Positions 3,520 to 39,136 of a stretch of DNA of 64,000 bases are shown piece after piece. This DNA is from Dipteris shenzhenensis (lineage: Eukaryota), in NCBI GenBank assembly GCA_047967505.1, contig CM106538.1. The stretch is one strand, 5' to 3'. A program made the position numbers and the translations under genes. Below the pieces are notes generated by a model. It was not told the origin of the DNA and did no database searches. It saw only the letters and a list, made by a program, of their open reading frames with translations. The number at the start of each line of letters is the position of its first letter. The first letter of the stretch is position 1.

Positions 3520-3890
3520 GGGAGTTTTCAAGCTTGATGCTATGTCAGATCTTGGTCCTTTGCACAAGTATCTAGGCATTCAATTTGCTAGTAGTGAGGG
3601 GGGTATTTTCATGCCACAATCCAAGTACATTGGACAACTTTTGCAACGTTTTTTAGTCTGGGTATTGCAAGCTCGTATCCACACCATTAGAGCTTGGTTT
3701 TCATTTATCATCCGAGGATGACAATGGTGCATGTGATATCACTCTCTATTAGCAAGAAGTTGGTTGTTTGATTTATTTATGACATCCCAAGCCAGATCTT
3801 CAATATGATGTCTCACTGTTGAGCAGATATATGCACAGCCGCTTACACACCATTGCCATACCGTGAAGCGTGTCTTCAGGTATCTCCAAG
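3520..3890 (+). mobile_element. Ty1/Copia reverse transcriptase fragment
   Basis: AMSDLGPLHKYLGIQF...MPQSKYIGQLLQRF and downstream VKRVFRYLQ match Copia RT motifs. Stops and frameshifts present. Confidence 0.85.
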
Positions 3891-3959
3891 AGCATTTTCA
3901 TCTACACACTTGCAGGACCACATAGTTTTTGTTCTATGCATATGTATATTCTAAAATAA

Positions 3960-4730
3960 AGAAGCAAAAATGTGCAGAGGCATAAACCAAGATAACCTTG
4001 CCCATTTGGATCCAAATGTAAACTTCATGGCCGTGCCCATATCCTTTTCAATCTTGTCCTTGTATGATTGCAATGTCCTCGAGTCCACATTGCTGCAATC
4101 CATGTCTTGAAGTTGTGGTGGTGCAATGGTTTACAGATGGCCATAGCTTGATGATGTCGTTGGAGTGATGTATGTTGCATTATACCAATACACATTCTTC
4201 ATTCGCAAGGAGGCCAACTTCTCCCCGGCATGCATTTGCTTACCTAAATCCTCGTGAATCGCAGTGAACTTGCCTTTGAACTCCTTGAAGTCCAAAGGGA
4301 AAACATCTGCCACCATGAATAAGAGCTCTTAGAAGCCAAACACAAAATTTCCAAATGGACTCATTACACTTACAGGTGAAAAAGGTACATAGATAGAAAG
4401 GCTCATAGTGTGATGGTATCCTAGATTGATTGAATGATGGAGGAAGCCGCATATCTTTTCCCATGTAAACATGTTGCACTTTTGCGAGCCATCCTTTCTT
4501 CATAAACTTGAACTTCAAGATGCGCCCCTTCCACTCATGTAAGATGTCACCTCTGGGTCACCTCTCTTGCTCTTAGAAAGCTTATGTGGACCTTTGGCCG
4601 ATTCTTTCATCACTATCTAGTCATTTAAGCTGTAGGTGCAAGGGATCCACTCATCCAATGCATTTTTGGTGTTATGGAAGACACAAGAGGTCATAGCATT
4701 GCATGGTCTTATAGCCTTGCTCCTCACCAT
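3960..4730 (-). pseudogene. Degenerate BAH-domain-like gene (probably one phase-1 intron)
   Basis: Manual reconstruction from ATG 4730: ...CTYSLND*IVMKE...KRGDILHEWKGRILKFKFMKKGWLAKVQHVYMGKD...(intron ending CAG at 4307)...YVFPLDFKEFKGKFTAIH...KNVYWYNATY. This follows BAH motif order (TYxxGD-V; ARI; AKVQWFY; ELF..D...GKCTVH; FFC..Y). One frameshift is removed exactly by deleting one copy of an AGAGGTGAC tandem duplication (11-bp period, about 4546-4565). Confidence 0.55.
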
Positions 4731-4784
4731 GCTTGCAGAGGTTGCAATAGCAAGAATGGGACTCTTACATAGGGCAATGTAGCT

Positions 4785-4989
4785 CTAACACAGGCACAAA
4801 AGAGGGAGAAGGAGAGGGACAAAGCAGCAGCAACAACAAAGGCACAAGAGAGGGAGAAGGAGAGGGACAAAGTAGCTCCAACAGAGGCACAAAATAGGGA
4901 GAAGGAGAGGGACAGAGCAACAGCAACAGAGGCACAGGAGAGGGAGCGAGAGCAGGACACAGTAGCTCGAATATAGGCACAAGAGAGGA

Positions 4990-5020
<31 letters not shown>
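4785..5020. repeat. About 45-48-bp minisatellite (GGCACAAxAGAGGGAGAAGGAGAGGGACAxAGxAGC...) x 4-5, followed by (GA)n
   Basis: Directly visible tandem units. Confidence 0.85.
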
Positions 5021-5581
5021 GAGCTATAGCAAGCAGGCCAGAGAGAGAGGAGCTATAGCAAGCAGGAGGGAGCAAAGAAAGAGGGGGAAGAGGGAAATGC
5101 ATGGGATTTGGTTCAAATGGAGTGATTTGGTAGGCTAGACCAGAATAGTGGGGGGAAGAGGCCCAGGGGAGAAGAAAATTTTGCCAGAAGGGCCCTACCA
5201 TCCCATTGAAGGTAATTTTGGGCTCATGTGGGGAGGTGCACCTGGTAGGAGGGTCAAACATGGGTTAAGAGGGGGGGATGGTTTGGGTGGTCCCTAGTGT
5301 AAGGGGAGCAACCAATAGGGGCTCTCTGCAGGCCTGCCCACCCTCCATCTCAACATACCATTGCCCCACACCTTCTAGCACTCTCATTGGTGCACCTCAA
5401 ATCACTCTCTAATCCCTTGAAATTAGGAAACACTGATTGGAGGCCCTTTTGAGACCCCAATTCTCCCCTAATGATAAGAGACACCTATAAGAAGAATATT
5501 CTAGTGTGAAGGAAGCATCCAAGAAGAAGAGGATGAGTTAGATACTGAAGAAGAAACCAAAGAGGAGTTCCAAGGATGAAG

Positions 5582-6000
5582 GGAGGAAAGGATGAAGCAA
5601 GAGCGGTTAAATAAGCAATCTCTCACAAGGAGCTAGCACAAAAAGAGAGGCAAGCTTGAGGTCCTCCTCTAGTGAAGAGTTATGGGTTCAAACCGGGCAT
5701 TGTGGCACTTTGGGAGATCTACAAGTGTCAAAAGTCAATCGATCTCCTTATCCACAAGGCGAGCTTTGCCAAAGTGATACATGAGGTCATGCATGATCTC
5801 AACTAGATTGCTACATCTAGGTGGTTCATGTGAGTGGTTGTAGGGGCCCCTTGGCATATTTTGATAGATGCCCTTCTTGACTTGCATCATGCAATTGAGG
5901 CATACTTGGTAGACCTCATGGATGATGTCCAACTTGCTGCCATCCATAGGATCAAGGTCACCATGACGGAGGGATTTGAGGTAGACCAATGGGAGTGCTC
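5582..6000 (+). pseudogene. Histone H3 / CENH3-like pseudogene, intronless, long loop 1
   Basis: A single frame reads ..HKELAQKERQA*GPPLVKSYGFKPGIVALWEIYKCQKSIDLLIHKASFAKVIHEVMHDLN*IATSRWFM*VVVGAPWHILIDALLDLHHAIEAYLVDLMDDVQLAAIHRIKVTMTEGFEV. It aligns to H3 ([39 protein letters not shown]...[30 protein letters not shown]). Four in-frame stops lie between 5582 and 5833. Confidence 0.9.
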
Positions 6001-6052
6001 ATTTCTATGGATCGATGCCATGTTAAGGTGGAAATGGACACATAAGAACTCA

Positions 6053-7200
6053 TGATAAGAGTTTCCACAGGCTACTCCTCTCATACGAGGCACTAAACAA
6101 ATATAGATAGGGGAGAGAAGAAGATTGGAGACAAAGAGAGAGAGCATGCCACAAATGACTAACTATACACTAGATTTAGTTGAAAATATTCAATATATAC
6201 CAAACCCCTTTAGGGTTAGGATTAGGGTTTCCAACCCTTGTTCCTTTTAGCACTCTTTTGTTAGTTTTTGCACAATATCAAACATGATGTTAAGATGAAT
6301 TGTCAACATCTTCCCTCAAGATCAACATCATGAAGTAGGCCTTTCCTCAAGATGATAATTAATACTTCTACAAAGTGGATTGCTATATAACGTATACCTT
6401 TGCTGTAACATCATATCCTAGCTACATCCTCTACTGCCATTTGATTTCCATTTCACCTCTCCTACAAGAGTGCCTACTTGTCTTCAACTTTGGAGCATTT
6501 TTCCTTGCTGTAATTTTGGTCAAAGTCACTTGGTAAGCTCCTATTGCATTGACTTCTTTTATTTCTAGCAAAATAGTCTTTCTTTTGGTTCCTTAGAATT
6601 GTGGAAAGGTCTCGTATTGCCTTGGAAGGCCCCGTGTTTCCTTTGGAAGTCTTTTTACAGTAGGTACACTTTGTGACAATCACATATTTGTAGTGGAAAG
6701 ACTTTGAAACTTGTGCTAGTAAATTGCTTTTGGATTTGGTTGGGAGATTGCACTCCTTTCATTTGCAATGTCATGTGGTGCTTTTGCCTTGCATTTTTGC
6801 ACTGTCTGGCAACAAGGATGACTTGTTTGGGAAGCTTGGATCTGAGGACAAAATTGATGGCATAAATAACTGTATGGGCTTACATCCTTACATGATAGGG
6901 CATGTCTTGGGTGCCAAGAATTTTTGGAACATTTTTGTAGGTATCGAGGTCAGATCAACTAGACCTAATGCCTCTGGTACATCTGGTAATTCCTCTCGCT
7001 CATATAGTGATGGGTCTAATGCTTCTTCCACTATAGCTCCTTCTTCCACATACCACTACTACAGCTGCCTCTTCCACTATAACTGCTTTTCCTCCTACTT
7101 AGGAGCAAATTCATGGGACTGTCGTGATGCAAAACACATGCCTTAATTTCTCCACTAGTAAAAAGGGTTATTATCCTCATATCCATTCATGCAAGACAGT
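6053..7200 (-). mobile_element. Copia 3' remnant: RNase H debris, PPT (6309-6318) and 3' LTR 6053-6308
   Basis: On the minus strand, TGAGGGAAGA is followed by TGTTGACA...TTATCA (256 bp, TG..CA). Upstream frames resemble a degenerate Copia RNase H end. Confidence 0.6.
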
Positions 7201-7239
7201 AAACAAGCATGGTATCGGCTTGCCTTCTTATATTAGGTG

Positions 7240-10200
7240 CGGAATGAGGCTAGAGTGGCCTATCTCCGCAAGTAGCTGAAGGACTTAAAGCTTGAATAGG
7301 GTGGTAATATGGATACCTATCTTACGAGTGTTAAATAATTGAAAGAGAAGTTGGCAAATATTGATAAGGTAATCCCAGATTCTTAGCTTGTATCCATGAC
7401 ACTTGATGGATTGCCTGATACATACCAGGGTTGTGCCACTACTTTGCGGGTGCTTGCCATGGGCAATGCCAACCACTACACTTTTGACCGATTGGTTGCC
7501 CTTTTGCTTACAAGAAGAACAAAGCCATGTGAATAGAAATGCTTTTATGGCTAGTCATCAAGCCTTTGCCACACAGCATAGAAACAAGGGCAAGGGGAAA
7601 GTTTCAACTGGTAAGCCCACTCATACACATGCTGATCATTCCTCTGATGCATCTTTTTCTGGAGAGAAGTGAAAGAAAAAGAGATGTAACTATTGCAGGA
7701 GACCTAGGCATGACATCACTAAGTGCAAGAAGAGAATTGCATTCAAAAAGAAGAAGAAGGGGTCAGGTCTTGCAATTTCTAGTGCTCCTAGTACAAATGA
7801 CATGCATCAGACAACCAATTTTGCACATAATCACCTTTGAGCTTTTCTTGTTACTTGTCAGTACAATCCTTCTATTCGTGATGCCTGCATGACAGTTTCT
7901 AATGGTTACGATGCATGGTTTTTTTATAGTGGTGCTAGCAAGCACATCACTTCCTCCAGGAAGTTATTCATCTCACTTGCAGATGCACCAAAGGGGGGAA
8001 TAGTTATAAGTGCAAATAATGCATCTTATTTAGTAAAAGGCTTTGGGAAAACTACCATTACTTCAGTGTTCTGGTGGTCTAGTCACTCTAGACAATGTAC
8101 TCTATGTACCAGGCGTCCACAAAAACCTCATATCCATTTCAGTTGTAGCTACTTGCAGATATCAGGTTCTTTTTTTACTTAGAGTACTTTATAGACTTGA
8201 TGCATATGACAAATGCTTAGATGATGCTAGACTTGTAGATGTAGATACTTATGTTGCTGATGCTTCTACCATGACAGATTCTCATTTATGGCATGAGAGG
8301 TTTGGACACCTTAACTTAGAAGATTTGGTAAAGTTGCGTAAAGTAGATATGGTAGCTGATCTTCCTAAGATTCATATGCCTTCCGACCATGTCTGTGAAG
8401 CATGTTTACTTGGAAAAATGCACCATTTTGCATTTCCCAAGGATGGGAGAGTTGGTACACTCATCAGGTTGTACTTGATTCACATTTATGTTTGTGGCCC
8501 TATGAGCATTGCAACCATAGGTGGATTTTACTATTTTGTGACTTTCATTGATGATTTCACTAGGTACACCTGGATTTTTTCTCTAAAGTCCAAATCTCAA
8601 ATCTTCACATGCTTTAAGCATTTTATTACTTTGGTAGAGATGAAAGTGGATGAATACATGTCAAAAGAGTTTGCTGATTATTTGCCCTCACATGGCATAC
8701 ATCATCAATGCACTGTGCCTTACACTCCCCAGCAGAATCCCATGGCAAAAAGGAAGAATAGATCAATTATGGAGATGGCCAGGTTAATGCTCAAAGGGAA
8801 GCACTTGCCTAACAAATTGTGGTTGGATTGTCATGTGTCCAAATTATATTTTGAATAGATGCCCAAACAAGGCATTGAAAACCATCACACCACATGAGGT
8901 GCTGCCATAAGCCCAAGATTTCTCACGTGGACTTTTAGTTGCTTGACATATGCACATGTGCCTTCATAGACATAGACAACGTTGGATGACAAAGTTGTCA
9001 AATGCATTTTTATTGGGAACTGCTCAAAAATCAAGGGCTACAAGCTCCACCAACCCTGTACAAGCAAATTCTTTGTTAGTAGAGATGTTTTTTCTAATGC
9101 CATGCCTTTGCTGGATTGTCAAAAACATCCACAATTGATGCACTAGATACTTTTGAGAGCTTGATGCCTTTGTTTTAGTCAGACCGCCATGATGATGCTA
9201 CATCTAAGGTTCCTCCTCGTCCTTCTACTGGTCATTTATGGCCACTTGTGCAGTCTAAAAATTAGTAGCATTTACAGCCTAATATGCCTCTAATTCATCA
9301 TGATATTAGGCACAGGGAAATTGACCAAGAGAGAGCTGAAAGGGTTATGCACAACAACAAGTCACTAAATTTGAAGAAACTTGTGCCCCCACTTCCAAGA
9401 ACACCACTATCAGGATTGTTCCTTCCTTTGTTGCTCATTTCATTGGGAGGTACATCAGCTTGACATGAACGCAGCATTTCTTCATGGGCACTTGCAAGAG
9501 GAAGTCTACAAGGCCAATCCTTCACTTGTCATGCGTGGATTCACTAATAGTGATTGGGCTGGCTGTTCCCACACCGTGTGTCACATAGTGGCAATTGTTT
9601 CATGCTTGGTACTTCATGCATCTATTGGTTCAACAAGAAGCAGACTACAGTTGCTACACCTAGTTGTGAGGCTGAGTATACAGCAGCTTTCCTTGGAGGG
9701 TACTGATGTGTCGTGGAGATCTTATTGGAATGTGATTGGAGAGCTCTCCTCCAATCCACCCTCATTGAGAGAAACACGAGCAAAGGATGTTCAAAAGTAT
9801 ATAGGGTTGTTGCAATCATGCATCCACAATGAGAAGAAGGGGGAGAGGGGAGAGGAGATGAGATGGAGAGAGAGATAGTGAGCAAGGGAAGGGGAACCGT
9901 GGCATTTAGAAGATCCAAGAGAAGGAAACAAGGGCACAAGTTATAGAAGAAGAAAGCTTGTACTCCTCAAACCTTGCATACACCCACTAAAGAGCAAAGT
10001 CAAAGATCTTGCCTTTTATACGTGCCACCTTTTGAAGGGAGCGCCACAGTGGAGTGTGTTTGGCTCCGAAAGTTACTTGCAGATCTCCATGTATGTCCGA
10101 TAGCTCCTACCTTCATCTTCACTGATAGTCGGAGTGCTTTGGCTATTGCACAGGATCCAATTTTCCATGCTCGCACAAAGCACATTGAGGTCCATTATTA

Positions 10201-14997: not shown

Positions 14998-15318
14998 TTA
15001 CTGTTCCTTCCATATTCTTCCTGTTACCCTTAACTTCAGCTCCTTCCTATCACCACCAGAGAAATACAATGCCATATTCCTTTGTATGATCAGCCCATCA
15101 TGACTGTCACGTGCTTTCCGATGGCTATCACGAATGCTCCGTGGCACCCCTTGCCAGGTCATTTTCCGTCCATTTGCACCCACTTCAAGGCTGTAGCTGT
15201 AGTTTTTGGCTTCACTGTCCTCACCCATGAACCGGAGAAAAGCCATATAAACAGGTGCCATGCCAAGCTGGAACGCTTCAAAATGAAGGCAGAAGTGTTG
15301 ACCAAAACAATTGAACAC
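14998..15318 (-). CDS. SINAT2: SINA E3 ubiquitin ligase, coding exon 3 (TRAF-like/SINA substrate-binding domain, stop TAA)
   Basis: VFNCFGQHFCLHFEAFQLGMAPVYMAFLRFMGEDSEAKNYSYSLEVG...LKLRVTGRIWKEQ*. Acceptor CAG|GTG; intron 2 is 15319-15559 (241 bp). The symbol means SINAT1/2-like. Confidence 0.97.
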   Translation of the reverse strand: MFNCFGQHFCLHFEAFQLGMAPVYMAFLRFMGEDSEAKNYSYSLEVGANGRKMTWQGVPRSIRDSHRKARDSHDGLIIQRNMALYFSGGDRKELKLRVTGRIWKEQ

Positions 15319-15559
15319 CTGCCAATTTTCAATTGTCACAGATTGCCTATATCCTTGCATTCATCAATTTTACACACAACTTCAATATGAACCAAATTAA
15401 AAGCATGCCCATTACAGTAGCTACCCTGCAGACCTTACTTCAATTTTGATGGCATGCAAATTCGATAAGAATCACGAGCGTTGCTAGGTCCCTTTTATAC
15501 TCAGTAACGTAAGAATTGCACACTAAGATCTAATAAAACATTTAAGTGGCTAAGCTTAC

Positions 15560-15946
15560 CGTCAACATCCATGTGGCATTCTCAACTTCCTGAGGATTTG
15601 ACTTCACATAGCGATGATTGTAAGTACATCCACTATGCATATCCACTTTGTGATCATCCCGTAAGTGAGCCACAAGGCTAGGAATATCTCCTGTTACTGA
15701 GCACTCTGACCCAGCATAAGGACAGTTATAGGGCCTGAAGGAGCATTGGGCCTCATGCTTCAACTTGCTGTAGTAAGGAAAAATGTCCTGACATCCCAAA
15801 GTATTATATCTACAGGGCATCTCAAGAGATTCTGCAACCTTCTCCAGAGCTAGGCATCTGATGTTTCCAAGCTCATATCTACAAGTGGGGCACCTGTTGT
15901 GCACTCTTGTCTTGCAGGCTGAACACAAAGTATGACCATTGGGACA
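15560..15946 (-). CDS. SINAT2: SINA E3 ubiquitin ligase, coding exon 2 (rest of RING, SIAH zinc fingers)
   Basis: CPNGHTLCSACKTRVHNRCPTCRYELGNIRCLALEKVAESLE...NATWMLT. Acceptor ACAG|TGT and donor ACG|GTAAGC; 387 nt, phase 0/0. Confidence 0.97.
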
Positions 15947-15970
15947 CTGTAACATAGAAAAGCACATAAG

Positions 15971-16006
<36 letters not shown>

Positions 16007-18216
16007 GATTAACACAGTGTGACCATTGCAATCACTGAGATAAAGGACAATTACATGAGCTCTCTCTCTTCCACCCCCCCTCCCTCCAAAAAAAACGAAA
16101 ATGAAAAAGGATGACCTCCACATTTAAATTTTACCCAAATACTTCAGTCCCTATACAATTTGCACTACAAAAGTACAAGCTTGCTTTGGATACTCAAACT
16201 TGCCTATCATTTCAGACAGTGCACACAGGTAAGATCACCATAAGCAACTCAATCTAACCTGTTTTCTCAAAGGTAGCACAAATAGACAATACTATTACCT
16301 TTCCCATGAGCATCTGTAGGAGACGTTTTGATTGTATGGGAGTCTGGAAGGTGAATTCCCTCCCTGTGAATATAGATGCTAATTGAGGTGATGAGGCAGT
16401 GCCCAGTTCACTATGTATCTTCATATACTGTTCTTATTTTCAAAAATAAGTGTCATAGGTTGAGTTGCCAGCTCGCTATTGTTCAAATTGCTTTTGATTT
16501 ATGTTAGAGTTGAAGGGTCTACTGAACAGTAATCCTACACAGCAGAATGTTTCAAACCCTCACTGATCTCTCCTGCAAGATAGGTGCACACACATGCCGA
16601 AACCTCACTCAGAAAATACAGCAGGAACAGAGAATAAGAAAGCAGACATCATTCATCCAGAGAAGAGCTAAACTCATCCAGCAAAGGTGTTGGGTAAAAC
16701 TGCAATCAATGATGATTGCACTGCTGAAATCTAAAGAGAGTTATGTGCTCTAACACTCTTTCAGTCTGTGGTGCCCTTGAATGGCTTCAGTGCCTAATGG
16801 AGTGTGCAAAAGGCCTCCCTTTTATCTATATTAATGATTTTGTAAGTTCAAAGCTCACACTCTAATTAAAAATTGTCTCTAGATTTCTGCAAAGTGGTAC
16901 CGTACGTTAGGTATGGTACATATGACATGAGTACCAGTATGCTGCATCGTTCGGAAAATAATATAAGGTACATAAGGTACATCGTCTTTGTAAAGTATTA
17001 TTTTATCCCCAGAAAAAAGAGGGAGAGAAGGGGGAGAGAGGAGAGGCAGAGAGAGGGGGCAGGGGGGTTAGAGACAACATTTTTGTACCTTAGTATAAAT
17101 TTTAAACCCACAAATCTATTATTGTAGTCCACATGACATTTACGCACAGTTTAAACTTCATATGTGTGTGTGTGCGCGTGCGTGCGTGCATGTGTGTGGG
17201 TGGGTGTATATATGTATATATATACACATATACATATACCTAGATGAGTCCAGGAACATGCCCAAACTCATCCTCTAAAAACACAATATAGTGCAGTTTC
17301 AATTTCATGATAGTCACTCATAAGCTTGAAAACCATAAACTCCATACCACATAGCATATACATATACATATTTATATTTACATACATGCATGCATGCGCG
17401 TGCGCGCGCACACACACAATCACAATCAAATGTGCGAATGATGATATCAAAGTCATGATGACTGAAGTCTAAAATTCCAAAACTCGTGCGAAAATGGACA
17501 TGAATCAAGACTCCTCTTCCTCTTCCTCTTCCTCTTTCTAAAAGGAGGATGTGGAAGCAAAATCTCCATCAATGACGGTATTACTATCACCATCATATTC
17601 TGGCTATGGATTCTCCCTTCTGCCCAACCTACTCATCCACATCCTCTAAGAATGCATCCTCTAGGGGTAGAGGTGTCCCCTAAGTCTTTACTATAATCCC
17701 TGTCAAGAAGCTACCTCGACATATATCTGTGCGCTGAATAGCCTGAGTTGGAACATGCCCCCTACCATGTCTCCTAGCCCTACGTCTATACCTTGGACGC
17801 TTGTGTGACCTCACATGAGCTTGGATCCTCATCACTCGTCTGTCCACAGTAATCAGCTCTTGATATAGGGAAGTATATAATGCCTCCTCCTTCGCAGTGG
17901 CAACAACATAGGCAGGCACTTTGTTCAAGTCAAGCGTTGACATGTCCACCTATAAGCCCAAAAAAAGAGTCAAGACTTATATGATAACTTACTATGACAG
18001 CTAGCACTTGGCACATCAACTTAAAAAGAGACCTCAGGCATGTGCCATGCGACCCATGCCTCATAGTTGAGAGTTACAACTCCTTAAACTTTTGGACTAG
18101 CCTCCCATTTGCACGAGAATCTTCGTGAGGATTTGAAGCCCTCTTCAAGGATTTTCAGTCCTCTTCAAGGAGATCAATCCATACAAACTCCAATTTCGCA
18201 CCAGACGAACAATCCT

Positions 18217-21200
18217 TGTTAGAGAATACAAAAGAGGGTATGCACAATGCAAGCAGAAGCTAGCCCCAAAGTAGAGTTATAGAGCCCAGGAACTCACACA
18301 GTGGTATATTAAAACACACAACTTATTTCCTTGGTATGTACCATGCACAAATATGCAGACAGCAATTAGACAATGTTCAAACGAGAGATGTGGAACCAGA
18401 AAAACAAATTTCTGTCCAATGGGACATATACAAAACCTATGTCCACTGTCTCACCCTTTATCAGGGGAGTGCTGACTATATATGGACCCTTGTCCATACA
18501 CAAAGTTGTTCTCCTACCTCCAAAACAGTAGGCTTGTGGTGCTCTCCTAGAGCTTGAGTGGGCCTTGTATTGTGTGCCCTGCAATCACACCTTGCGACTG
18601 ATCCTCCTAGACATCTCCTCGTAAGGCAATGCTTGCAATGGAACCTTGACCTCCCTGCTGCCCTTAATGCAGCCCAAACTGAGGCACAAGCTTACCATTT
18701 CACCCTCCAGTATCCTGCTTGAGAGCTTCAGAGCAGCACCAAGACTTCTCCCTCTCGCTTCCAGGAAGGCATACACCTTCCAAACTCTCAACAAAGCATA
18801 GAATCTGCCCAAAGCAAGTTATTAAGGTTCAAATGACTAACACACACCAGATGATCCATCTGCTTGACTGTAGTGCCTCCTCCAATATCACAGCTCCCAT
18901 CTGACCCTGAAACCATAGGTCCTTCCAAAGACTGCCCCCTCATGTCACTGATACCAGCCAAGCACCCAAAGCAATCTAAGCACTCATTGCTATCCTTCAC
19001 CTTTACAAAGGTTTCCGAATCCTCTCCAAAACTTTCTCTCAATGTCAAACATTCTTATTCTAACATTGGGGTCTGCATGACTTACCTCAGTAAGGCATGA
19101 GATGTCACAAGAAAATCTCTTCTGAGACTACCGCCATGTGTTCACCTAGTCTTTCATTGCTACAGGATCTGCAGTACGTCCCTGCCACCACAGTTGCTGT
19201 GGCCGGAGTTGTGGTCCCCTATAACATTTGCTCCACTCCCATCGTAATCTCCCGAGTTGATCTCACCACCAAGTGGCTCCGGACCTTCATCTTGCAAATA
19301 TCTTATGGTCATGATAATTGAAAGGAAAGAGATAGAAGTTCTATACACCTACCTGAATCTGAGTCACCCTCCTTGCAATGGTGGCACTAGTCCTTCACAC
19401 ATAGAAGCTGACCTCAAGCTTCAATCAAGGTCGTCCTTTCCCAAGGTCCTTGCCTTTGAGCTCCCACCACTTAGAAACTTCCATCAAGGCTCTAATACCA
19501 TGTTAGAGAATACAACAGAGGGTATGCACAGCAAAAGCCAACTCTAAAGTAGAGCTATAGAGCCCAGAAACTCACACAGTCATATATTGAATATTCAAAT
19601 CCAAAACTTCTTTTCCTTAATGTGTCTATGCATGGATTTGCAAACAAAAATTAGGCAATGCTCAAAAGAGAGATGTAGAACCAGCAAGATATATTTCCGC
19701 CCAATGTAGACACAATACAAGGTCTATGTCTAGTGTATCACCCTCTATCAACAAAGTGCCCGTTGGATATGGACCCCGGTACACAAAGCTGTTCTCCTAC
19801 CTCCTTGGCACTTCCAAAACACTATTAGAAACATGGAGTTGAGGAGAAGAGAGAGAGAAGGTAGGCTAGGGTGAGAGGTAGTGATACTCAAATGAAAACA
19901 TTATGGAAATGAAAGTACTCACATGGCTAAAAGAGCACTTTCATTCATTGAAGTAACATGAGAAACAAGCCTTTATAGAATAGACGCACACATTCATAGC
20001 ACCAAATGTATATGGGATAACTCCTAAAGTGACAAGTGGCACTCACACTTAGAACTACTACTAGATCTCCTAGTAAAACACACCAAAACACACTCTTTGG
20101 CTATGATTTCTCCAACACCCCCCTTCAGAGCAAAGAGTGTGAGGCCCAACACGCAAGGAGTAGATCAATCCCCCCTCCACCGCAGTACTACAAAGAGCAA
20201 GTCTAACTATCCAACACCACCTATGTGATAGTGACTTCTCAGTCAGCTTGCGACTAGCAAGAGTAGATCATCACTCATCACCCCTTTACTCTGAACTGGG
20301 TGGTCAATACAATCATACCAAAGTAAAAGACTATGCAATCATTTTTGGGGAACAAACCAGGGCAGAGTACCCTTATTGACTCCAAATACATTCATTTTAG
20401 AGGGACTACTCAAGGCAAAGAACCTTTAGCGTAGACTCAACTGAAAAACACATATCACATAGGGCCTAGAAAGCCCAAGAATCCCAATCATAATGTTCCG
20501 GATCAAAGAGGCCATGAACCTCAACAATGGCTGCATATATCTCCTCAAGGGGCTCTTCAGGTTCGGCTTGGTCTTCAGCAATGAAATTGGCATGATGCTT
20601 CTCTTGTTCTTGTTCCTTCTTTTTGAAGCATTTAGCTTCAACATGTCCTTTTCATTTACAAAATCTGCAAATAATATTTTATTGGTCTTCCATTTGCTTG
20701 TGGAAGCAAATGCATGATCACCAGCAGAGGCAAGAATGGCATCTTTATTACGACGGTCCTTTTCAATAAGTAAAGCCACCATATCATCAAACGTGGTAGT
20801 GGCAAGGCGTAGAACTTCAAGGGTCTGCTCAAAACAAGGTATCCCTTGCATACTCTTCATAAAGACAACCGTTTTACCCTCATCATCAGGTTGGCTTTTC
20901 AAGCTTGAGAGTTGTTGAACAAGAGACTGAAATCTTGCTAAATAATCACTCAACTCTTCACTCTCTTTCATTCTCAAATCGTAGAACTTGAGTTTCAAAA
21001 TGGCTTTAGAGTTGGTGATCTTGTTACCAAATAAGCTTTCAAGGCGATCCCAAATCTCCTTGGCAATGGACTTGAAATGTCCGCCAGACAAAGAGCAATG
21101 AGAGCAATTGCTCTTGCATTCTGCTGCTTCCATACTTTGTGTTGTTGCTGATCAGTTGTATCAAGGTGGTCTTTCTCAACAACGTCCCAAACTCCTTCAC

Positions 21201-21846
21201 CCATAAGAAACTGTATCTTTGTTTGCCATGTTGGGAATCCTTCCCCCTTAAACTTCTCCACAAGCAGGGAACTTGAAGACAAGGAAGTCATGATAGAAGA
21301 GGGCTTTGTGTGAAGGCGGGCAGCAACCTGAGGTGACAAGCCCGCAACACAAGGTGAAGAACCAGCAAATATGTCAGCTGGTCAGCAGGCTCCACGTGTG
21401 CAAGGCAGCTGATGTAGATGCTCCTGTAGGTGTTGCAGCAGCTAGTCGGTGGCCACTGGCTTTAGGTGCTCGAAAATGCAAACCCTGATCAAAACGCAGC
21501 AAGAGGGTGCCCCGAAATGCAGAACCAAATCAAAACGCAGCACTTGTGGACGTCGAAACTGTTCAGAGGTGGCTTCAAACACTTCGAAGTGCTGGAAAAG
21601 TATGCAGCAGCAGCACCAAAACATTGATTTCTGGCAGTGGAAGGCTCCACAACAACCTTGGGTGACCTTACATGCATGCACGCCTTGAGAAATGTGCCAA
21701 CCAGCAAACCAAGAGGCCACCAAGGGAACCTAGAGCGCACAGGGTGGCAAGAAATGGAACTTGGAGGGGCTAGGGCAGATGACGTGGCAAGACAGGTTAG
21801 GGCAAGGCCAACCTGCTCTGATACCATGTTAGAAACATGGTGTTGA

Positions 21847-23339: not shown

Positions 23340-24572
23340 ACCCTATGGAGATTCAAGATTCAAAAAAAGATTAAGAAAGTTGCTGATTTTACAAATTGTA
23401 TAACAAACTATAAATTGGGATTCAAGAAAGTAATCCAATTCTAAGAAGTACCCTCAAAGCAAGAGCCTAGTGCCAAAGCCATATGTCTCCCACCAGCTAA
23501 TAGGCTTTACATAATTCTATTTCTTCTTTGCAGTAGCTCTAGAGAAGGCTGGTCCAAACCCATTACTATAAGTAATAAGCTCGTCATCTATATGCTCCTG
23601 AGTTTCCTCTAGGAATACTCTAGACACATATGAATGCCAAGCATCTGCAAGCTGGCTATCTAACAATAGATCATGAGTTTTATGAAGTGGATGGAGAAGA
23701 TCAGCCGTGCCATGGACACGACAACTCATAAACATCCACCTTTATTACACAATAGCCTTAATCTCATCCAATCTACATAGTACCCATTGCACAAGCATTT
23801 TATTTAAGTACTAAGTAACAAGTTCTAACTTGTAGGATTAGGTTTCGAATTAAGCATTTTAACTTTCACAATGGGTAAATATAATTACTTAGGTACAAAG
23901 GCTGGTCCATTTGTCAAGGTCCGTGTGTACCCTCTAGATTAAGTGGTATAAAAAACAAAGGGTGCATCATCCCTCCATGTCCACAGAATCACACAGCAGC
24001 CACAATGGGGGCTCTATCCGCTGCCATAATGAGGTATCAAGAATAAAGACCTCCAAATGAAGAGTATATATGTTCCTAGAGTTGTCGCAATGTATCCACT
24101 CACCAGATACCACTGTCGGATGCAAGTCATGGTCCACGGCATACATCTACTCCAAGACAAGAAACATGCGGGCAAATCAAGTCTTGAAGGGCCACAATAT
24201 CTCCATCTTTGAGTACTCGCGAAAAGTAGAAAATTCCTTGGGATTTTTCTTGAAGGATACCACGATGTTATTAGCCTCCCTCATGGTAGTCTGCACCCAA
24301 TCAAGCTTGCCTATGTCATCCATCAATAGGTCAAAAGGCAATGTGAAGTGCAAGGGATCCACACTATGGAAGAAAACTCCTCCTCTACCGTCTCTCCCAT
24401 CCTTCTACAACTTGCACCACATTCTCTAGGCCCACCTCTATGATGGTTGCTCAAATGTGCCTATAGATGAAATCTTGTTGCTTGCTCTCCCATCATAGCA
24501 ATCAACAGCCCGCAAGAAGTGTGCGCCTAGACAAGAGGAAACCAAGATATTAACAATGCTTCTCTTCTTAAC

Positions 24573-27500
24573 TGTTGGGGTAAAGGCACATTGCCACCCC
24601 TTTATTAAAGTTAAGACATCTATGACTGTCTTAAGACAGTCATAGGATAAAACCTAATCCTAATAAAACTAATGAGTTTGTGGTGTGGCTCATCACTTCA
24701 CACCCGCACATTTGGAGTTCTCTCTCTTTCTCACTCTCTCCCTCTTGCTCTTCTTCCCCCTTCAGGCCCTTCAACTGGTATCAGAGCCTACCTCTCCTAC
24801 TCTCCCTACTCCACTCCCTACCCTAGCCTAACCACCCCCTCAACGAACTCCTCAACCTAGCATCTGCAGCAGGGCCAGGCGACGCTGAACAGCGCCAGCA
24901 GCTGCAACAGCAGCTGCTAGCCGCTACAGCTGCGAGCAGGCAGGGCGGCAGCGCTGTGAGCAGGCAGGGCGGCGGCGCATCGCGCAGGGCAGGGCGGCGC
25001 AGCAGCGCGCCACTTCGCAGGGGGCAGCGCATCGCGCAGGCGCAGGCTCCTTTCGCGCGCCGTACATCCGTACGGACGGCCCTGTGCCGTACAGTACAGA
25101 CTACCGTACTGTACGCTGACAAGCCCTTCAACTGAGCAGGGAGCTGCTTCCGATTTTTGCAGCAGGGAGGTACATTTTTTTTTCGGGATCTGTGTCAGAG
25201 GATACTTTTCTCCTTAGATCTGGCTTTTGCACAGGTACAGCAAGTACAAAAGTACAACAGGTACATTTTTTGTTTGGGGAAGAAAGAGAGGAGAAAGAGC
25301 ACTCTGCTCTTCATTCCTCTTGATTCAGGATCATCTTTCAGTTCACAGAACTGTGTTTTCTTGAAAGTACAGCAAGTACCTTCATTTACCTCGTGCTTGA
25401 GGAAAAGAGAACCACAGTGTGTGGTTGATTGCACAGTTATTTTGTTCAGGGAAGGTAATGCCTTGATTTTGCAAGAGGACATATGCTTTTACTAGGTTTG
25501 AATCTCAGTTTACAGGTGAGCAGATCATAGGGCTTTTGCCCGGCAGGTGATCCTTTGTATGCCTTGAGGCAGTGTGGTGCCAGAGAGCACACATTTGTCT
25601 TGATTTCCGCAGTGTCGAGGTGACATTTTCTTGCAGGTCACATTTCTTGTGCAAAACTCAGAGAACCTCAGTTGAGCCACGCTTGGCCAGGGCGCATCGA
25701 GTTTACTCGGTCCCTAACTGTCCATCGTTGACAGTGCTCAAAAGGTTCCTCATTGAGTGTTTGTACGTTGGGATCTGTGTATGTCATTTTTACACAGGAC
25801 AGTATATGCATTACACTGTTGGTTGATTTTGTCAGAGAGACTTTCATATTGCATACTACCTCAGTGTTGAGGTGTTTTTCACTTGGTTCAGGTGTCAGAT
25901 CAAGGGGCTTTTGCCCAGATTTTGTTTGATAGCACTTGGGTCACCGACAGAGATCTTCAGATGCATTTTATCCCCTTGGCAGAAGGGTGATTGCTTGGGA
26001 TTTATCCCATTTTCTGTTGCAGGTTTTGTGACAGGCTGAAGTGTCATTTTTTTTTGGGTGTTTGCCAAGTGGTTTATGCATATTAACTCAGTGCAATACC
26101 TCATCTGAGGTGGGAGAAGTGATCAGTACAGCCAGTACAGCAGTGTTTGTGCCTTGTCAGCTGATTATGCACTGTTAAGCACTTGTTGAGCAGCTGCAGC
26201 ATTCTGAAATTACTGTTTATGCCTCTTTGAGCACGGTACAGTGTGTCAGAAGGTACAGTATTTGCAGGGTCATTTACTGTTTTGCTGCAGATTTTCCTGA
26301 CAGTAAAAAACAGCACTATTGTGAGTGCTCCTGGCTCTTAATAGAGCAGGTTTTTTTTCTGAGAAATCAGAATTTTTATTCAGTCTTTTTACTTCCAGTG
26401 AGTCAGATACTTTCCTTATCTGATATGGCATCAGGGGGAAGTGATTCTTCAATTCTGAACATAAAGAAACTGGAAGGAGCACACAATTATGCATTATGGG
26501 CAGAACAGTGCTTGAATGTACTTCTATTAAAGAAGATTTCTAAGCCCATAAGGGTGAAGGGTGTCAAGCCATCTGACATGGCAGCTGATGACTGGGAAGA
26601 GCTTGATTTGTCCGCAAGGGCAGCTATCATGCTCACTATTTCTGACACTTTTGTGTTCAATGTTCAGGCTGAAAAGACCTCTTATGGTCTATGGCAAAGG
26701 CTAGAAGAATTGTATGCCCAAAAGAGCTCAGCCAGTAAGGTTTATTGGTTGAAGAAGCTGGTTGATCTTCGCATGAAGGAAGGTACAGCTATGACCTCAC
26801 ACTTGAGTGAGTTCAATGCCATCTTTACACAGCTGATTGCACAGGGATTGAATCTTGATGAGGAGTTCAAGGCTACTTTCTTGCTGTGTACCCTCCCTGA
26901 GAGTTGGGACACTTTCAAGACCACCCTGTCAAATTCGAATGTCACTCTTATTTATGCTGATGTAGAGAGCTCTCTCCTTATGGAGGAAATGAGCAGGAAG
27001 AATAATGCGAGCAGCAAGTCTTCAAATGCCTTGCAGGTACAGGATAGAGGCAGGACTCAGCAGAAGGGGAGATCTGCTAGTGAGTCCAAATCCCGCAGTC
27101 AGTCCCGTGGCAAAAAGGATATTGAATGCTTTTATTGTGGCAAGAAGGGACATGTGAAGTCTAAGTGCTTCAAGTTCATACGGGATCAGAAAGCCAAGAA
27201 AGCTGAAACAAAGGATGCAAGAAATGGAAGCAAAGGCAAAGGCAAGGCCAAGGCAGATGACTTGGATGCCGTGAATGTTGCAGCAGAGGACAGTGACAGT
27301 GACATACATGATGTTTTATGCTCTTCTGCTGTAATAGCACATGCTTTGGTTATTGATGGCCATGACATGCACACCTGGCTCTTGGATTCAGGTGCTTCTT
27401 TTCATGTTACTCCTCATAGGGAGTGGTTTACTTCCTACACAGGTACTCATGGAGTTCTTCATCTTGGGAACAACTACGCATGTCAGATTGCAGGGATTGG

Positions 27501-30500
27501 CAGTATACAGATAGTATTTTCTGATGGACGCATATTCATGCTTGATGGTGTCCGCCATGTGCCGCAAATCAAGAAAAATCTGATTAGCACTGGCTTATTG
27601 GATGACAGTGGTTACCACACCACATTTGGGGATTCCAAATGGGTGATTACTGATGGCCAGGCTATAGTGGCTGAGGGTTTTAAGAGTGATACCTTGTACC
27701 CTCTTTATGTTTCCAGTGTGGGTAATCATGTTGTTGCCATAACCGAGCTGCCAAAGGTTTCATTGTGGCATAGCCGGTTGGGACACACGTCTGTTAAAGG
27801 AATGCAAGAACTGTCACGTTTGGGTTATCTGCCGTCTCTTTCTTTTTCAGATTTGCCTACTTGTGATCATTGCATATTTGGCAAGCATTCTGTGACTCCT
27901 CATAAGAGAAGAACTCCCCAGAATAGAGCACCACTTGATCTAGTGCACACTGATTTGTGTGAGATGCCACAGTTATCACTAGGGGGTGCAAAATATTTTA
28001 TTACTTTCATTGATGATGCCACACGCAAAGTGTGGGTCTATTTCTTGAAGCATAAGGGCGATGCCTTAGATGCTTTCAAGAAGTTTGTCGCTCAGGTTGA
28101 GAATCGGACAGGTTGCAGGCTGAAATGCCTCAGATCCGATAATGGGGGTGAGTATGTGTCACATGCTTTTGTGCAGTTTTGCCAAGCTAAGGGCATCAAA
28201 CAGGAACTCACAGCTCCTCATAATGCATCTCAAAATGGTGCAAGTGAGCGGATGAATCGAACTATTCAGGAGAAGGTTCGATGTATGTTGTCTTATGCTG
28301 CATTACCCCATGGCTTTTGGGCAGAAGCCGTGCAAACAACAGTTCACATTATTAACAGGTCGCCAAACAAGGCTTTGGAGTTGAAAGTGCCAGAGGAGGT
28401 GTGGTCTGGCAAGCCACCTTCATATAAGCACTTACGTGTATTTGGCTGCGAGTGCTTTGCTCATGTACGCAAAGAACTGCGCACCAAACTGGATCCAAAG
28501 TCTATCAGATGCATCTTTATGGGTTATGGTGACGAAGGTGAAATGGGGTACAGGTTATGGGATCCCGTTAAACGGAAGATTATACGCAGCAATGATGTCA
28601 TCTTTAAAGAGGATAGTGTACACAAGGAACCCGTGCAACCTGTGGAATACAAGAGCATTATTTATGATGATGTTGGACAGCAAAGAATGCCCATTTATAT
28701 GCAGCAGCAGACTGCTGCAGATAACCCTGTTCAAGAGGGTATACAGGCTGAAAATCAGCCAGATAATTTTGCCAATGATGCACCACTGGATATGCCAGCA
28801 GATGGGGCTGTAGAACAGCCAGATATGGTGGTACAGCCACCCGTCATGCATGAAGAACAGGCTGGACAGCAGCCTAATCCGGAACATTTTGTTAGGAGGA
28901 GCACCCGTGTACAACGACCTCCTGCCAGGTTTGTTCCAGGAGCCAATAATGTGGCTGATTTTATCATGCTGACAGATTGTGGTGAGCCTTCCAGCTTCAA
29001 GGAAGCTATGGGAAGAACAGAGAAAAAGAAGTGGGAGAAAGCCATGCAGTCAGAAATGGACTCCCTACTTCAAAATGATACATGGGACTTGGTGCAGTTA
29101 CCTGCAGGCAGAAAGGTTTTGCCATGCAAGTGGGTTTACAAAGTCAAAGTGGATTCAAATGCTTTACCGAGGTATAAGGCCAGATTGGTTGCCAAGGGAT
29201 TTAAGCAGGAGAAGGGCATTGACTTTGATGAGATCTTTTCCCCTGTAGTCAAGATGACTACTTTGAGAGCAGTGTTAGCTCTTGTTGCTCATGACGACAT
29301 GGATTTATGTCAGATGGATGTGAAGACAGCTTTTCTTCACGGAGATCTCCATGATGAGATCTATATGAGTCAACCAGAGGGATATGCTGTTAAAGGGAAA
29401 GAGCAGCTTGTGTGTAAGCTCAAGAGGAGCTTGTATGGACTCAAGCAGGCGCCAAGAGAATGGTACAAGAAGTTTGATGCCTTCATGCAGTCCCAAGGGT
29501 ATCATAGGTGTGAGACCGATCATTGCTTGTACACCAAACGGGCAAAGGATGGCAGTTTGATGCTACTCATGCTATATGTGGATGACATGCTTATTGCCAG
29601 TAAATCTCAGCATGAGATTAGTGCTTTGAAGAAACAACTGCATAAGTCTTTTGACATGAAAGACTTGGGTGATGCAAATCATATTCTTGGCATGCGGATT
29701 ACTCGTGACAGGTCCAAGGGACTTTTGTTTCTGTCACAGAAAGAGTACATTGACAAAATACTGCAGCGCTTTAAAATGGAGGGGGGGAAGTCTATTAGTA
29801 CCCCGTTGCCTCCACATTTAAAACTCAGCAGTAAAGACAGCCCCAGATCAGATGATGATAAGGCTGAAATGGCCAAAATTCCGTATGCATCTGCAGTTGG
29901 ATCTTTGATGTATGCCATGGTTGCCACTCGTCCGGATATTGCTTTTGCGGTGGGAGTCATCAGCAGGTATATGGCAAATCCAGGCAAGAGGCACTGGGAA
30001 GCAGTGAAAGGTGTCTTGAGGTATCTCAAGGGTACCAAAGACTTGTGCACATGCTATGGTAGGCAGGATGCATTGGTGCATGGTTTTACAGATTCAGACT
30101 ATGCAGGGAATGCATATAACCGGAAGTCTACTACCGGTTATATTTTCACATTTGCAGGAGGTGCTATATCATGGGTGTCTCGGTTGCAGAAATGCATTGC
30201 ACTGTCAACTACTGAAGCTGAATATGTTGCAGCCACTGAGGCTTGCAAGGAAGCAATATGGCTTACTCGGCTGGTGGGAGACTTGGGCATTACAGGAGAT
30301 ATGCCGGTTTTGCATTGTGATAGTCAGAGTGCTATCATGTTGGCAAAGAATCCGGTCTTTCATCAGAAGACCAAGCACATAGATGTGAAATATCATTTCA
30401 TCAGGGAGGTACTGGAAGACAAGCGACTTGAGCTTGTGAAAGTGCATACTGATGATAATCCTGCAGATTTGCTCACTAAGAGCTTGCCTACTGAGCGGTT

Positions 30501-30834
30501 TGCACATTGCCATCACATCATGGGATTAGGATGAGACCATTCTTATTTTATGGTCCTGTATACAGTAACTGTATATTGCTGTAATTTTTATTCTTTTCTC
30601 CCCTTTAGGCACATTGGCCTTTAGGTGGGAGGTTGTTGGGGTAAAGGCACATTGCCACCCCTTTATTAAAGTTAAGACATCTATGACTGTCTTAAGACAG
30701 TCATAGGATAAAACCTAATCCTAATAAAACTAATGAGTTTGTGGTGTGGCTCATCACTTCACACCCGCACATTTGGAGTTCTCTCTCTTTCTCACTCTCT
30801 CCCTCTTGCTCTTCTTCCCCCTTCAGGCCCTTCA
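24573..30834 (+). mobile_element. Intact, very recent Ty1/Copia LTR retrotransposon (6,262 bp; Tnt1/Tork-like)
   Basis: LTRs 24573-24773 and 30634-30834 (201 bp, TG..CA, identical by eye); TSD TTAAC (24568-24572 / 30835-30839); PBS TGGTATCAGAGC 24776-24787; PPT AGGTGGGAGG just before the 3' LTR; uninterrupted polyprotein. Confidence 0.98.
26425..30534 (+). CDS. Copia Gag-Pol polyprotein (1,369 aa from MASGG)
   Basis: CCHC CFYCGKKGHVKSKC, protease LDSGAS, HHCC plus integrase D-D-E (HTDLC/SDNGGEY/SERMN), RT YVDD, RNase H TDSDYAG..EAEY..CDSQSA..ADLLTK. Copia domain order. Confidence 0.97.
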   Translation: MASGGSDSSILNIKKLEGAHNYALWAEQCLNVLLLKKISKPIRVKGVKPSDMAADDWEELDLSARAAIMLTISDTFVFNVQAEKTSYGLWQRLEELYAQKSSASKVYWLKKLVDLRMKEGTAMTSHLSEFNAIFTQLIAQGLNLDEEFKATFLLCTLPESWDTFKTTLSNSNVTLIYADVESSLLMEEMSRKNNASSKSSNALQVQDRGRTQQKGRSASESKSRSQSRGKKDIECFYCGKKGHVKSKCFKFIRDQKAKKAETKDARNGSKGKGKAKADDLDAVNVAAEDSDSDIHDVLCSSAVIAHALVIDGHDMHTWLLDSGASFHVTPHREWFTSYTGTHGVLHLGNNYACQIAGIGSIQIVFSDGRIFMLDGVRHVPQIKKNLISTGLLDDSGYHTTFGDSKWVITDGQAIVAEGFKSDTLYPLYVSSVGNHVVAITELPKVSLWHSRLGHTSVKGMQELSRLGYLPSLSFSDLPTCDHCIFGKHSVTPHKRRTPQNRAPLDLVHTDLCEMPQLSLGGAKYFITFIDDATRKVWVYFLKHKGDALDAFKKFVAQVENRTGCRLKCLRSDNGGEYVSHAFVQFCQAKGIKQELTAPHNASQNGASERMNRTIQEKVRCMLSYAALPHGFWAEAVQTTVHIINRSPNKALELKVPEEVWSGKPPSYKHLRVFGCECFAHVRKELRTKLDPKSIRCIFMGYGDEGEMGYRLWDPVKRKIIRSNDVIFKEDSVHKEPVQPVEYKSIIYDDVGQQRMPIYMQQQTAADNPVQEGIQAENQPDNFANDAPLDMPADGAVEQPDMVVQPPVMHEEQAGQQPNPEHFVRRSTRVQRPPARFVPGANNVADFIMLTDCGEPSSFKEAMGRTEKKKWEKAMQSEMDSLLQNDTWDLVQLPAGRKVLPCKWVYKVKVDSNALPRYKARLVAKGFKQEKGIDFDEIFSPVVKMTTLRAVLALVAHDDMDLCQMDVKTAFLHGDLHDEIYMSQPEGYAVKGKEQLVCKLKRSLYGLKQAPREWYKKFDAFMQSQGYHRCETDHCLYTKRAKDGSLMLLMLYVDDMLIASKSQHEISALKKQLHKSFDMKDLGDANHILGMRITRDRSKGLLFLSQKEYIDKILQRFKMEGGKSISTPLPPHLKLSSKDSPRSDDDKAEMAKIPYASAVGSLMYAMVATRPDIAFAVGVISRYMANPGKRHWEAVKGVLRYLKGTKDLCTCYGRQDALVHGFTDSDYAGNAYNRKSTTGYIFTFAGGAISWVSRLQKCIALSTTEAEYVAATEACKEAIWLTRLVGDLGITGDMPVLHCDSQSAIMLAKNPVFHQKTKHIDVKYHFIREVLEDKRLELVKVHTDDNPADLLTKSLPTERFAHCHHIMGLG

Positions 30835-31789
30835 TTAACATCACTCCAGACTTTCTCTCTAGGCCCACCTCTATGATGGTTGCTCAAATGTGCCCATAGA
30901 TAAAATCTTGTTGCTCGCTCTCACATCATAGCAATCAACAGCCCGCAAGAAGTGTGCACCTAGACAAGAGGAAACCAAGATATTAACAATGCTTCTCTTC
31001 TTAACATCACTCCATCCACCAGAAAGTATGCTCCATCCATACTTCCTCTATGCCTCCTTAAATAGATTGAAGTAAAAGATTGATTCTTTGCATTTGATCA
31101 TCAAGCATGTTCGTGCAAATCTTAGTATCTTGCAATCCAATCCAATCCAATCCCCTGCTGATCACACCTCCACAACGGCTTTCATCATTTTTTTCCATTG
31201 TCATGTGCTCAAGACATTGAATGAGAGCACAATCCACAATTGTTTACCAATCTCAAACTTCTCTTTCTGCCAACTCGCGGAAGCAAGCCTCCCAGGCAAA
31301 GTTATTTGTGATGTGTATGACAAACCTGCATCATTCCTTGGCCTCTTTCCTATATATGTAGGGTGGGATGAAACAATGGTACTACCCACTAGAGTATCCA
31401 TGCCAATTGTCTCTATCTCCTCGACATCGTCAAAAAGAAGACCATGAGGAGTAACAATAAGCACAAGAAAGTCATCATCAAACTACCCTGCATACTCATG
31501 CAAGATCTCATCTAAATCCTCCTATGAGATCACAATGCACCCTTAATTCCCTTTCCACCCCATTTAGACATGTGGCGCAAGACACACGTAAGTGTACTTA
31601 CAAAAGAAAACAAGAGAATCATGAGTCTAGATTCCAAATAATATAAGGATTCTGGAACACGATATATATTTTATCATGTAGATTTCAATTATGTAAATAG
31701 AAGCCTCGTGAATCCATTGTCCTTACCTCTTGCGATGTTTGAATTTAGACTCGCCACGATAGGAAAGCCAAGAAACAAAAGAGAGCAAG

Positions 31790-38997: not shown

Positions 38998-39136
38998 GAG
39001 CCTTGCGGTCCCGGAGTTCCTTGGCTTCCCGAGCCTCGCAGTCCCGGAGTTCCTTGGCCTCTTGAACCTTGTGGTCCTGGAGTTCCTTGGCCTCTTGAAC
39101 CTCACGGTCCTAGAGTTCCTTGGCTTCCTAAACCTC
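38998..39136. repeat. 33-bp tandem repeat x about 4 in the Gypsy gag N-terminus
   Basis: GAGCCTyGCrGTCCCGGAGTTCCTTGGCyTCyy-like units; one minus frame gives EAKELRD.EA.. coiled-coil-like repeats. Confidence 0.9.

Follow-up and report, generated by a model that had tools for sequence, protein, structure and literature searches.

Other centromere proteins recognise CenH3 by the region made up of loop 1 and helix 2, and a structured insert at this position would therefore be of interest in intact proteins. In the original CenH3 criteria the conserved Thr that is replaced is T107. In the excerpted sections of PMC4359364, the diagnostic features quoted are loop 1, Q68, a change of F84 to W and the tail, and the conserved Thr is given as position 118. 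Gene fragments are known to be carried by inverted-repeat transposons, Pack-MULEs (PMC5861414, PMC3310237) and GingerRoot (PMC6839031) being examples from the parts of these sources that we draw on here. A hAT element in the fungus Pyrenophora tritici-repentis carries a histone H3-like gene, H3L, which, according to the portion of PMC3538342 available to us, fits neither H3 nor CenH3. The locus described here lies in a 64,000-nucleotide stretch of DNA, the whole of which was analysed and to which we refer as the window. It is very probably a dead piece of a long-loop, CenH3-type histone family, and it is flanked by a significant inverted repeat, which is a new finding. In itself the locus is inert, a piece of ordinary genomic debris; its value is that it points to a histone family without a name.

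The histone H3-like pseudogene reading occupies positions 5618-5971 on the plus strand, in the frame of 5627. Within 5480-6055 this frame translates as KELAQKERQA*GPPLVKSYGFKPGIVALWEIYKCQKSIDLLIHKASFAKVIHEVMHDLN*IATSRWFM*VVVGAPWHILIDALLDLHHAIEAYLVDLMDDVQLAAIHRIKVTMTE... (asterisks denote stops), an H3-like fold that comprises a partial tail, helix N, helix 1, a long loop 1, helix 2, loop 2 and the start of helix 3. The match to H3 is colinear from helix N to loop 2 and reaches only the start of helix 3. When compared by phmmer with all PDB chains, the fragment matches 168 distinct chains at E ≤ 0.01, the best H3 at E = 2.2e-12, and all of the best 60 of these 168 are H3 or CenH3 (60/60), with Cnp1 of S. 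pombe at 3.3e-11. Judged from its sequence, the fragment has a histone H3 fold beyond chance. The reading is free of frameshifts over 5627-5971, and what the preliminary description had called a divergent, intronless H3 with CENH3-like hallmarks is indeed uninterrupted over its alignable part. Self-searches with tblastn and blastn found no second copy of the histone part within the 64-kb window, and a word-indexed protein search with the window translation returned 98 candidates, none of them at E ≤ 0.001.

Three in-frame stops are present on the plus strand: a TGA in the tail region (5657-5659), where the aligned family column is P in 7/14; a TAG at the second codon of loop 1 (5804-5806); and a further TGA within loop 1 (5831-5833), where the family column is R in 9/16, consistent with a change of CGA to TGA. 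None of the nine arginine columns that are conserved in the family is retained in the window copy: five are now Y, W, Y, H and H, each reachable from CGN by C to T or G to A changes only, three are K and one is G. Given the three stops and the loss of all conserved arginines, the copy is non-functional and encodes nothing. The ratio of observed to expected CpG is 0.22 in the fragment, 0.16-0.19 in its flanks and 0.38 for the window. Most changes are of the C to T or G to A type expected in methylated DNA, and the earlier suggestion that the copy had decayed by deamination stands because of the changes at the Arg columns, the column at which the 5831 stop falls and the CpG ratio.

Loop 1 (5801-5854, plus strand) is expanded to 18 codons, compared with 4 in canonical H3 and 18-19 in the relatives introduced below. 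From helix 1 to helix 2 the window copy measures 44, 15/16 family members (one is misparsed) measure 44-45 and canonical H3 measures 30; on the same scale, just 12 of 128 other H3-family matches have a distance of at least 42, and none has exactly 44. Loops of nearly this length therefore also occur outside the family. The preliminary description had counted 18 codons between HDL and HIL, noted ASFAKV in place of LPFQRL with no Q68, and found T107 not conserved, and direct reading of the translation bears out all three, the T107 position being V. It had also considered that the loop might be a private insertion. We find instead that the loop is common to intact relatives and is inherited rather than private, because the alignment with one of them, P0015, is gapless and the family profile requires only a single 1-residue gap. 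At the Q68 position the window copy has SFAK and most relatives PFAR, with A at the site, while P0027 retains Q. At the F84 position relatives have RW; the aligned window column is I, with a W two residues upstream (PWHIL). Where H3 has T107 the window copy has V and the relatives have G or V, and T118 (RVT) is retained in both; whether the conserved Thr counts as replaced turns on which of the two residues is intended. The N-tails of the relatives are unlike that of H3 past the first residues.

A HMMER search through all 1.84 billion representatives brought these relatives to light among 2,527 matches at E ≤ 0.001. The highest-scoring entries, P0002-P0014 and P0016, represent gene models with two or three canonical H3 copies, and their high scores come only from summing the copies. 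The best single-domain matches are P0015 (1.1e-14), P0017 and P0018, with P0027 lower down. Two further searches added P0154, P0221, P0224, P0229, P0233, P0237, P0240, P0245, P0248, P0249 and P0251, along with the partial sequences P0268 and P0269. Leaving the two partial sequences aside, all of these single-domain proteins together with P0152 make up a family of 16 members. They are intact open reading frames of about 165 amino acids (153-217, with P0152 reaching 245 through an upstream extension) on transcript-sized contigs, 0.6-7.1 kb long, of Logan or ENA origin. None is named and none is in NCBI or UniRef, so that in the searches run such long-loop proteins appear only as unnamed sequences from short contigs. 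The profile of the 16 members shows as conserved features a tail motif (DSERT.SD), a stretch of 20 residues, LLIP(K/R)APFAR without Q68, the 18-19 residues of loop 1, RWSAQALLAIQ, in which W replaces F84, YLV.LM.DG without T107, and a C-terminal extension, RNNSDAF..DPNMP.

By the sequence criteria quoted in the sections of PMC4359364 used here, the long-loop family classifies as CenH3-type. The preliminary description had held that the locus is not the host CENH3. This is right for the dead copy only: the intact parent family is CenH3-type by those same criteria and may well be the CENH3 of its lineage. In the PDB profile search CENP-A-type and H3 chains are not told apart (135 versus 130 bits), and Foldseek, run with a model of P0017, does not distinguish CENP-A from H3 either. 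The AlphaFold model of P0017 has the H3 helices and, in loop 1, a predicted short helix at residues 89-95, in a block with pLDDT of about 70-72 where the overall mean is 61; we treat this loop-1 helix as a lead only. A Protein Atlas search with P0233 gave only generic histone H3/CSE4 clusters. A metagenome scan with the family alignment yielded no family members among the 80 loci kept, which are ordinary H3 genes of 39-55% identity with matches too short for the long loop. Literature searches on CenH3 residue criteria, CENH3 retrocopies, CENH3 of non-seed plants and CENH3 in Pack-type elements turned up nothing specific to the long-loop family. Two members of the collection differ at their 3' ends: P0268 matches the family until ...NNSDAF and continues with unrelated sequence, and P0015 stops early at ...QDFCI where P0152, a 97% identical sequence of the same cluster, runs on ...QDFRIVRRFRNNADAF. 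Ends of this kind would be in keeping with alternative splicing, or with an intron, close to the 3' end of the family genes.

How securely does the window copy belong to this family? When the 16-member profile is run against all six frames of 5200-6300, only the 5618-5971 frame matches, at 94.5 bits with the one 1-residue gap already mentioned, and profile positions 30-145 of 168 correspond to 116 aligned codons without interruption. Residues 65-178 of P0015 align with 5630-5971 over 114 codons at 41% identity. By tblastn, identity is 37.5-45.9% to family members and 35.3% to canonical H3, for which gaps are needed. With the loop-1 columns removed, the family profile still scores highest, at 93.4 bits, followed by other W-type CenH3-like sequences (90.6), fungal CenH3 (78.3) and canonical H3 (71.4), and the ten top identities over fold columns (51-54%) all belong to family members. 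The window copy also carries the family-specific residues YLVDLM, the DVQ of P0027, and EVM.DL. In a careful tree of 43 rows and 121 columns, loop included, it joins the 16 family members with support of 96/87. Other results speak against this placement. Once the loop-1 columns are dropped the window copy is unplaced, and an AU test without them leaves its grouping with canonical H3 unrejected (p 0.255); in a quick tree of 147 rows it pairs with P0036 outside the family (support 71). The branch of the window copy is very long, at 1.8-2.9.

The homology ends at 5971, 23 profile positions short of the family stop codon. Searches for the family C-terminus in any frame after 5971 did no better than shuffles, which reached the score in 19-99% of 300 trials; the window copy thus shows no match to the C-terminal extension ...RNNSDAF..DPNMP and is truncated at 5971. 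A candidate C-terminus in the +1 frame, RRDLR*TNGSAHFYGSMPC*, which resembles the family's KDLRLVRRFRNNSDAF..MP, was rejected as scoring no better than shuffles. The proposed likeness of GFEV to the KDFEL of CENH3 is not upheld: no frame past 5971 beats shuffles, and the bases from 5969 onwards are the right arm of the inverted repeat. At the other end, the family N-tails have no significant match upstream of 5618 even with frameshifts allowed (16-39 of 60 shuffles reach the score). What had been taken for a remnant of the canonical tail, KELAQK, gives a weak alignment at best, and its partner is the tail of the relatives rather than specifically that of canonical H3. The inner stretch between the left arm and the histone part (5408-5617, plus strand) contains, in another frame, an acidic reading at 5508-5576 as well as an ATG at 5533. 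The acidic stretch that the preliminary description placed upstream exists, as the E/D-rich EGSIQEEEDELDTEEETKEEFQG, but does not match the family N-tails significantly. Taking the ATG at 5533 as the start of an N-terminus (MS*ILKKKPKR...) was likewise discarded, being no better than shuffled DNA.

The fragment lies within an inverted repeat with core arms at 5377-5407 and 5969-5999. The cores agree at 27/31 positions in local alignment, a score that none of 200 shuffles reaches, and blastn of the arms gives 24/27 with E = 2e-5 locally and 0.004 against the window. Weaker similarity continues outwards, on the left to 5344 and possibly 5282, on the right to 6032 and possibly 6101. Repeat finding reports arms of 64 nt (5344-5407 and 5969-6032) that are 72% complementary, and a hand count over the extended arms (5282-5407 and 5969-6101) finds 78/126 columns identical; the arms differ by 27 transitions and 21 transversions, and the alignment has one 7-nt gap. 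The extension, which adds just 12-14 score units or so beyond the 31-nt core, is not significant alone. In a DNA fold of 5270-6117 the core arms pair together, while the whole 848-nt stretch folds no better than shuffles (z -1.58). The right arm begins at 5969, at the last codon aligned with the histone family, whose profile ends at 5971. Direct reading found no clean target-site duplication at any candidate boundary; it did turn up degenerate candidates, namely CACCTTCT at 5369-5376 versus CATTTCTA at 6000-6007, and AGGGGGGGA at 5270-5278 versus AGGGGAGAG at 6109-6117. The 64-kb window contains no further copy of the arms. A 40-nt stretch at 3722-3761 is 73% like 5385-5424, which adjoins the left arm, and may be a chance resemblance.

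The surroundings are rich in repeats and retroelements, the names of which, where translations are concerned, come from reading those translations. About 300 nt upstream of the left arm core at 5377, positions 4771-5066 hold a 45-nt tandem array of five copies (74% matches), after which come an (AG)n run and a 29-nt duplication without mismatches. Further upstream, 3530-3900 (plus strand) contains a piece that resembles a copia-type reverse transcriptase towards its C-terminus (LDAMSDLGPLHKYLGIQF...), separate from a degenerate Ty1/copia-type element that lies downstream of the fragment at 7150-9900 (plus strand). The latter has many stops and an internal deletion; its readings include a gag-like one with a zinc-knuckle region at about 7680-7740, a protease (YSGASKHITS), an integrase (8037-8858) and a fused reverse-transcriptase/RNase H remnant (9375-9878). 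A primer-binding motif that would tie the fragment to this element was sought near 5000-7200 and had no match there. An apparently intact LTR retrotransposon occupies 24423-31005 (plus strand), with direct repeats at 24423-24773 and 30634-31005 that are 97-100% identical, an exact primer-binding motif of tRNA-Met type right after the left repeat (24776-24787) and one open frame of 1,451 amino acids (26179-30534). On the minus strand, 20426-21826 is probably another copia-type element, with a gag-like frame of 241 amino acids at 20426-21151 and, in the same orientation, a primer-binding motif at 21815-21826 that is exact; one more such exact motif lies at 61436-61447 (plus strand). The only clear host gene noticed near the fragment reads as a plant RING E3 ubiquitin ligase of SINA/SINAT type, with exons at 14998-15360 and 15542-16123 (minus strand) and an intron of about 180 nt. 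Other features of the window are a 174-nt tandem duplication of 99% identity (36213-36560), a tandem array with a 33-nt period and five overlapping 87-nt copies (38918-39136), and an AT-rich region at 44000-56000 (GC 0.27-0.35) in which CpG is far less depleted (ratio 0.54-0.73 versus 0.18-0.5 in the rest of the window); this DNA may differ in age or methylation state. Rfam gave no matches on the whole window, and a Protein Atlas search with the upstream minus-strand ORF at 4243-4557 gave no usable match.

There are several scenarios that might explain how a dead piece of a CenH3-type gene came to lie here. The most likely one, because the fragment lies between the arms and the right arm starts exactly where the homology ends, begins with a gene of the long-loop family, encoding a protein of about 165 residues, as the parent. 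A small non-autonomous DNA transposon would have acquired a piece of this gene between its terminal inverted repeats, by transduplication of the kind seen in Pack-MULEs, and the piece would then have decayed in place along with the surrounding transposon-rich DNA. We infer that the arms of the repeat represent the ends of a transposon, and that the copy arose by capture and not by retroposition. The complete statement, a dead CenH3-type fragment with this history of capture, we advance tentatively and would rate a little short of an even chance; if correct, the locus would show a DNA transposon that has caught part of a centromeric-histone gene. Against it stand the lack of a clean target-site duplication, the absence from the window of a second copy of the arms or of the histone part, the insignificance of the arm extension and of the fold of the whole stretch, and the trees and AU test that do not place the copy in the family. 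In addition, capture of the Pack type as a rule takes genomic DNA, introns included, and the uninterrupted fragment would therefore need an intronless parent or a cDNA source.

The main rival, which we consider unlikely, is that the copy is a processed pseudogene: the mRNA of a CenH3-type gene would have been reverse-transcribed by the enzyme of a LINE or an LTR element, inserted and left to decay, with the inverted repeat either arising later or belonging to the target site. Retroposition, which the preliminary description had named as one possibility, would account for a reading that is uninterrupted over all 116 aligned codons, and the plant CENH3 genes known to date are split into 4-9 exons according to the portion of PMC8603533 used here. 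The point at which P0268 diverges, directly after ...NNSDAF as if read into an intron, fits as well, and retroelements are abundant in the window. There is even a 10-bp direct repeat, ATGATAAGAG, at 5471-5480 and 6052-6061 that might mark an insertion. Three observations argue against this model. First, direct reading finds no poly(A) tract before 6052 or anywhere in 5972-6100. Second, the direct repeat has a local E of only 0.023 and was judged to be chance rather than a target-site duplication; moreover, its second copy sits inside the right inverted-repeat arm, a poor fit to simple insertion. Third, the homology stops abruptly, before the family stop codon and exactly at the arm.

A more improbable scenario is that we are looking at the relic of a DNA-level duplicate, tandem or segmental, of an intronless CenH3-type gene, truncated and scrambled by insertions and a local inverted duplication. 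Full-length family reading frames occur on contigs of up to 7,107, 4,541 and 2,638 nt, which would fit uninterrupted genes if these contigs are genomic, and plants are known to have duplicated and pseudogenised CENH3, with two CENH3 pseudogenes in cowpea according to the part of 10.1101/2020.01.07.897074 that we draw on. However, the window copy has no recognisable start, promoter region or C-terminus, and such a duplicate would leave unexplained why an arm coincides with the end of homology.

It is also conceivable, although we regard it as highly doubtful, that the long-loop family is a separate conserved CenH3-type variant that was picked up and spread by inverted-repeat DNA transposons, the window copy being one relic of this process. 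The preliminary description had spoken of a TE-borne lineage. An association with a transposable element is backed by the bracketing inverted repeat, but a lineage needs several copies and there is one in 64 kb. If spread of this kind were real, plant transposons would carry, or would have carried, a centromeric-type histone gene, as the hAT element does with H3L in Pyrenophora, and there might be a link between the spread of transposons and centromeric chromatin. Least credible of all, and already disfavoured, is a pseudogene of canonical H3 that drifted after gaining an insertion of its own in loop 1 or helix 2, since, although PDB searches put canonical H3 first (HMMER there sets an 11-residue insertion in helix 2) and the AU test without loop columns leaves a canonical clade unrejected, the canonical profile falls 22 bits below that of the family even without loop 1, the insertion matches intact relatives in place and length, and the copy has residues specific to the family.

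Returning to transposon capture as the preferred reading, how does the locus compare with known systems? With Pack-MULEs, GingerRoot and the hAT-borne H3L, as far as the cited excerpts describe them, it shares a piece derived from a host gene that lies between inverted repeats. It differs in that the window has a single decayed copy, no transposase and no clean target-site duplication, whereas the fungal H3L has 26 near-identical expressed copies in the available portion of PMC3538342. The repeats of MULEs and of GingerRoot, moreover, are typically at least 100 bp long in the parts of PMC3310237 and PMC6839031 used here, whereas the arms in the window are short and degenerate. Like processed and CENH3 pseudogenes of plants, the window copy is uninterrupted and non-functional, its known plant counterparts having introns (PMC8603533, in the portion used); unlike them, it comes without poly(A) or a convincing flanking duplication and is truncated at its 3' side inside the coding region.

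The closest comparison is with the long-loop family itself, with which the window copy has in common the length and position of loop 1, its best identity over the fold and its place in the tree when loop columns are included. The members are intact, whereas the window copy has stops, has lost the conserved arginines and lacks a recognisable N-terminus or C-terminal extension. Set against CenH3, CENP-A and plant CENH3, the window copy is a truncated pseudogene, yet one with the H3 fold, an extended loop 1, no Gln at Q68 and no Thr at T107, and its intact relatives add W at H3 F84 and a tail unlike that of H3. Where the family parts company with these proteins is in a loop 1 that exceeds that of H3 by 14-15 residues, a conserved C-terminal extension (...RNNSDAF..DPNMP) and a tail motif (DSERT.SD). 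The fragment thus indicates that this plant lineage has, or once had, a CenH3-type histone in which a loop-1 expansion of this size is combined with a conserved extension of the C-terminus.
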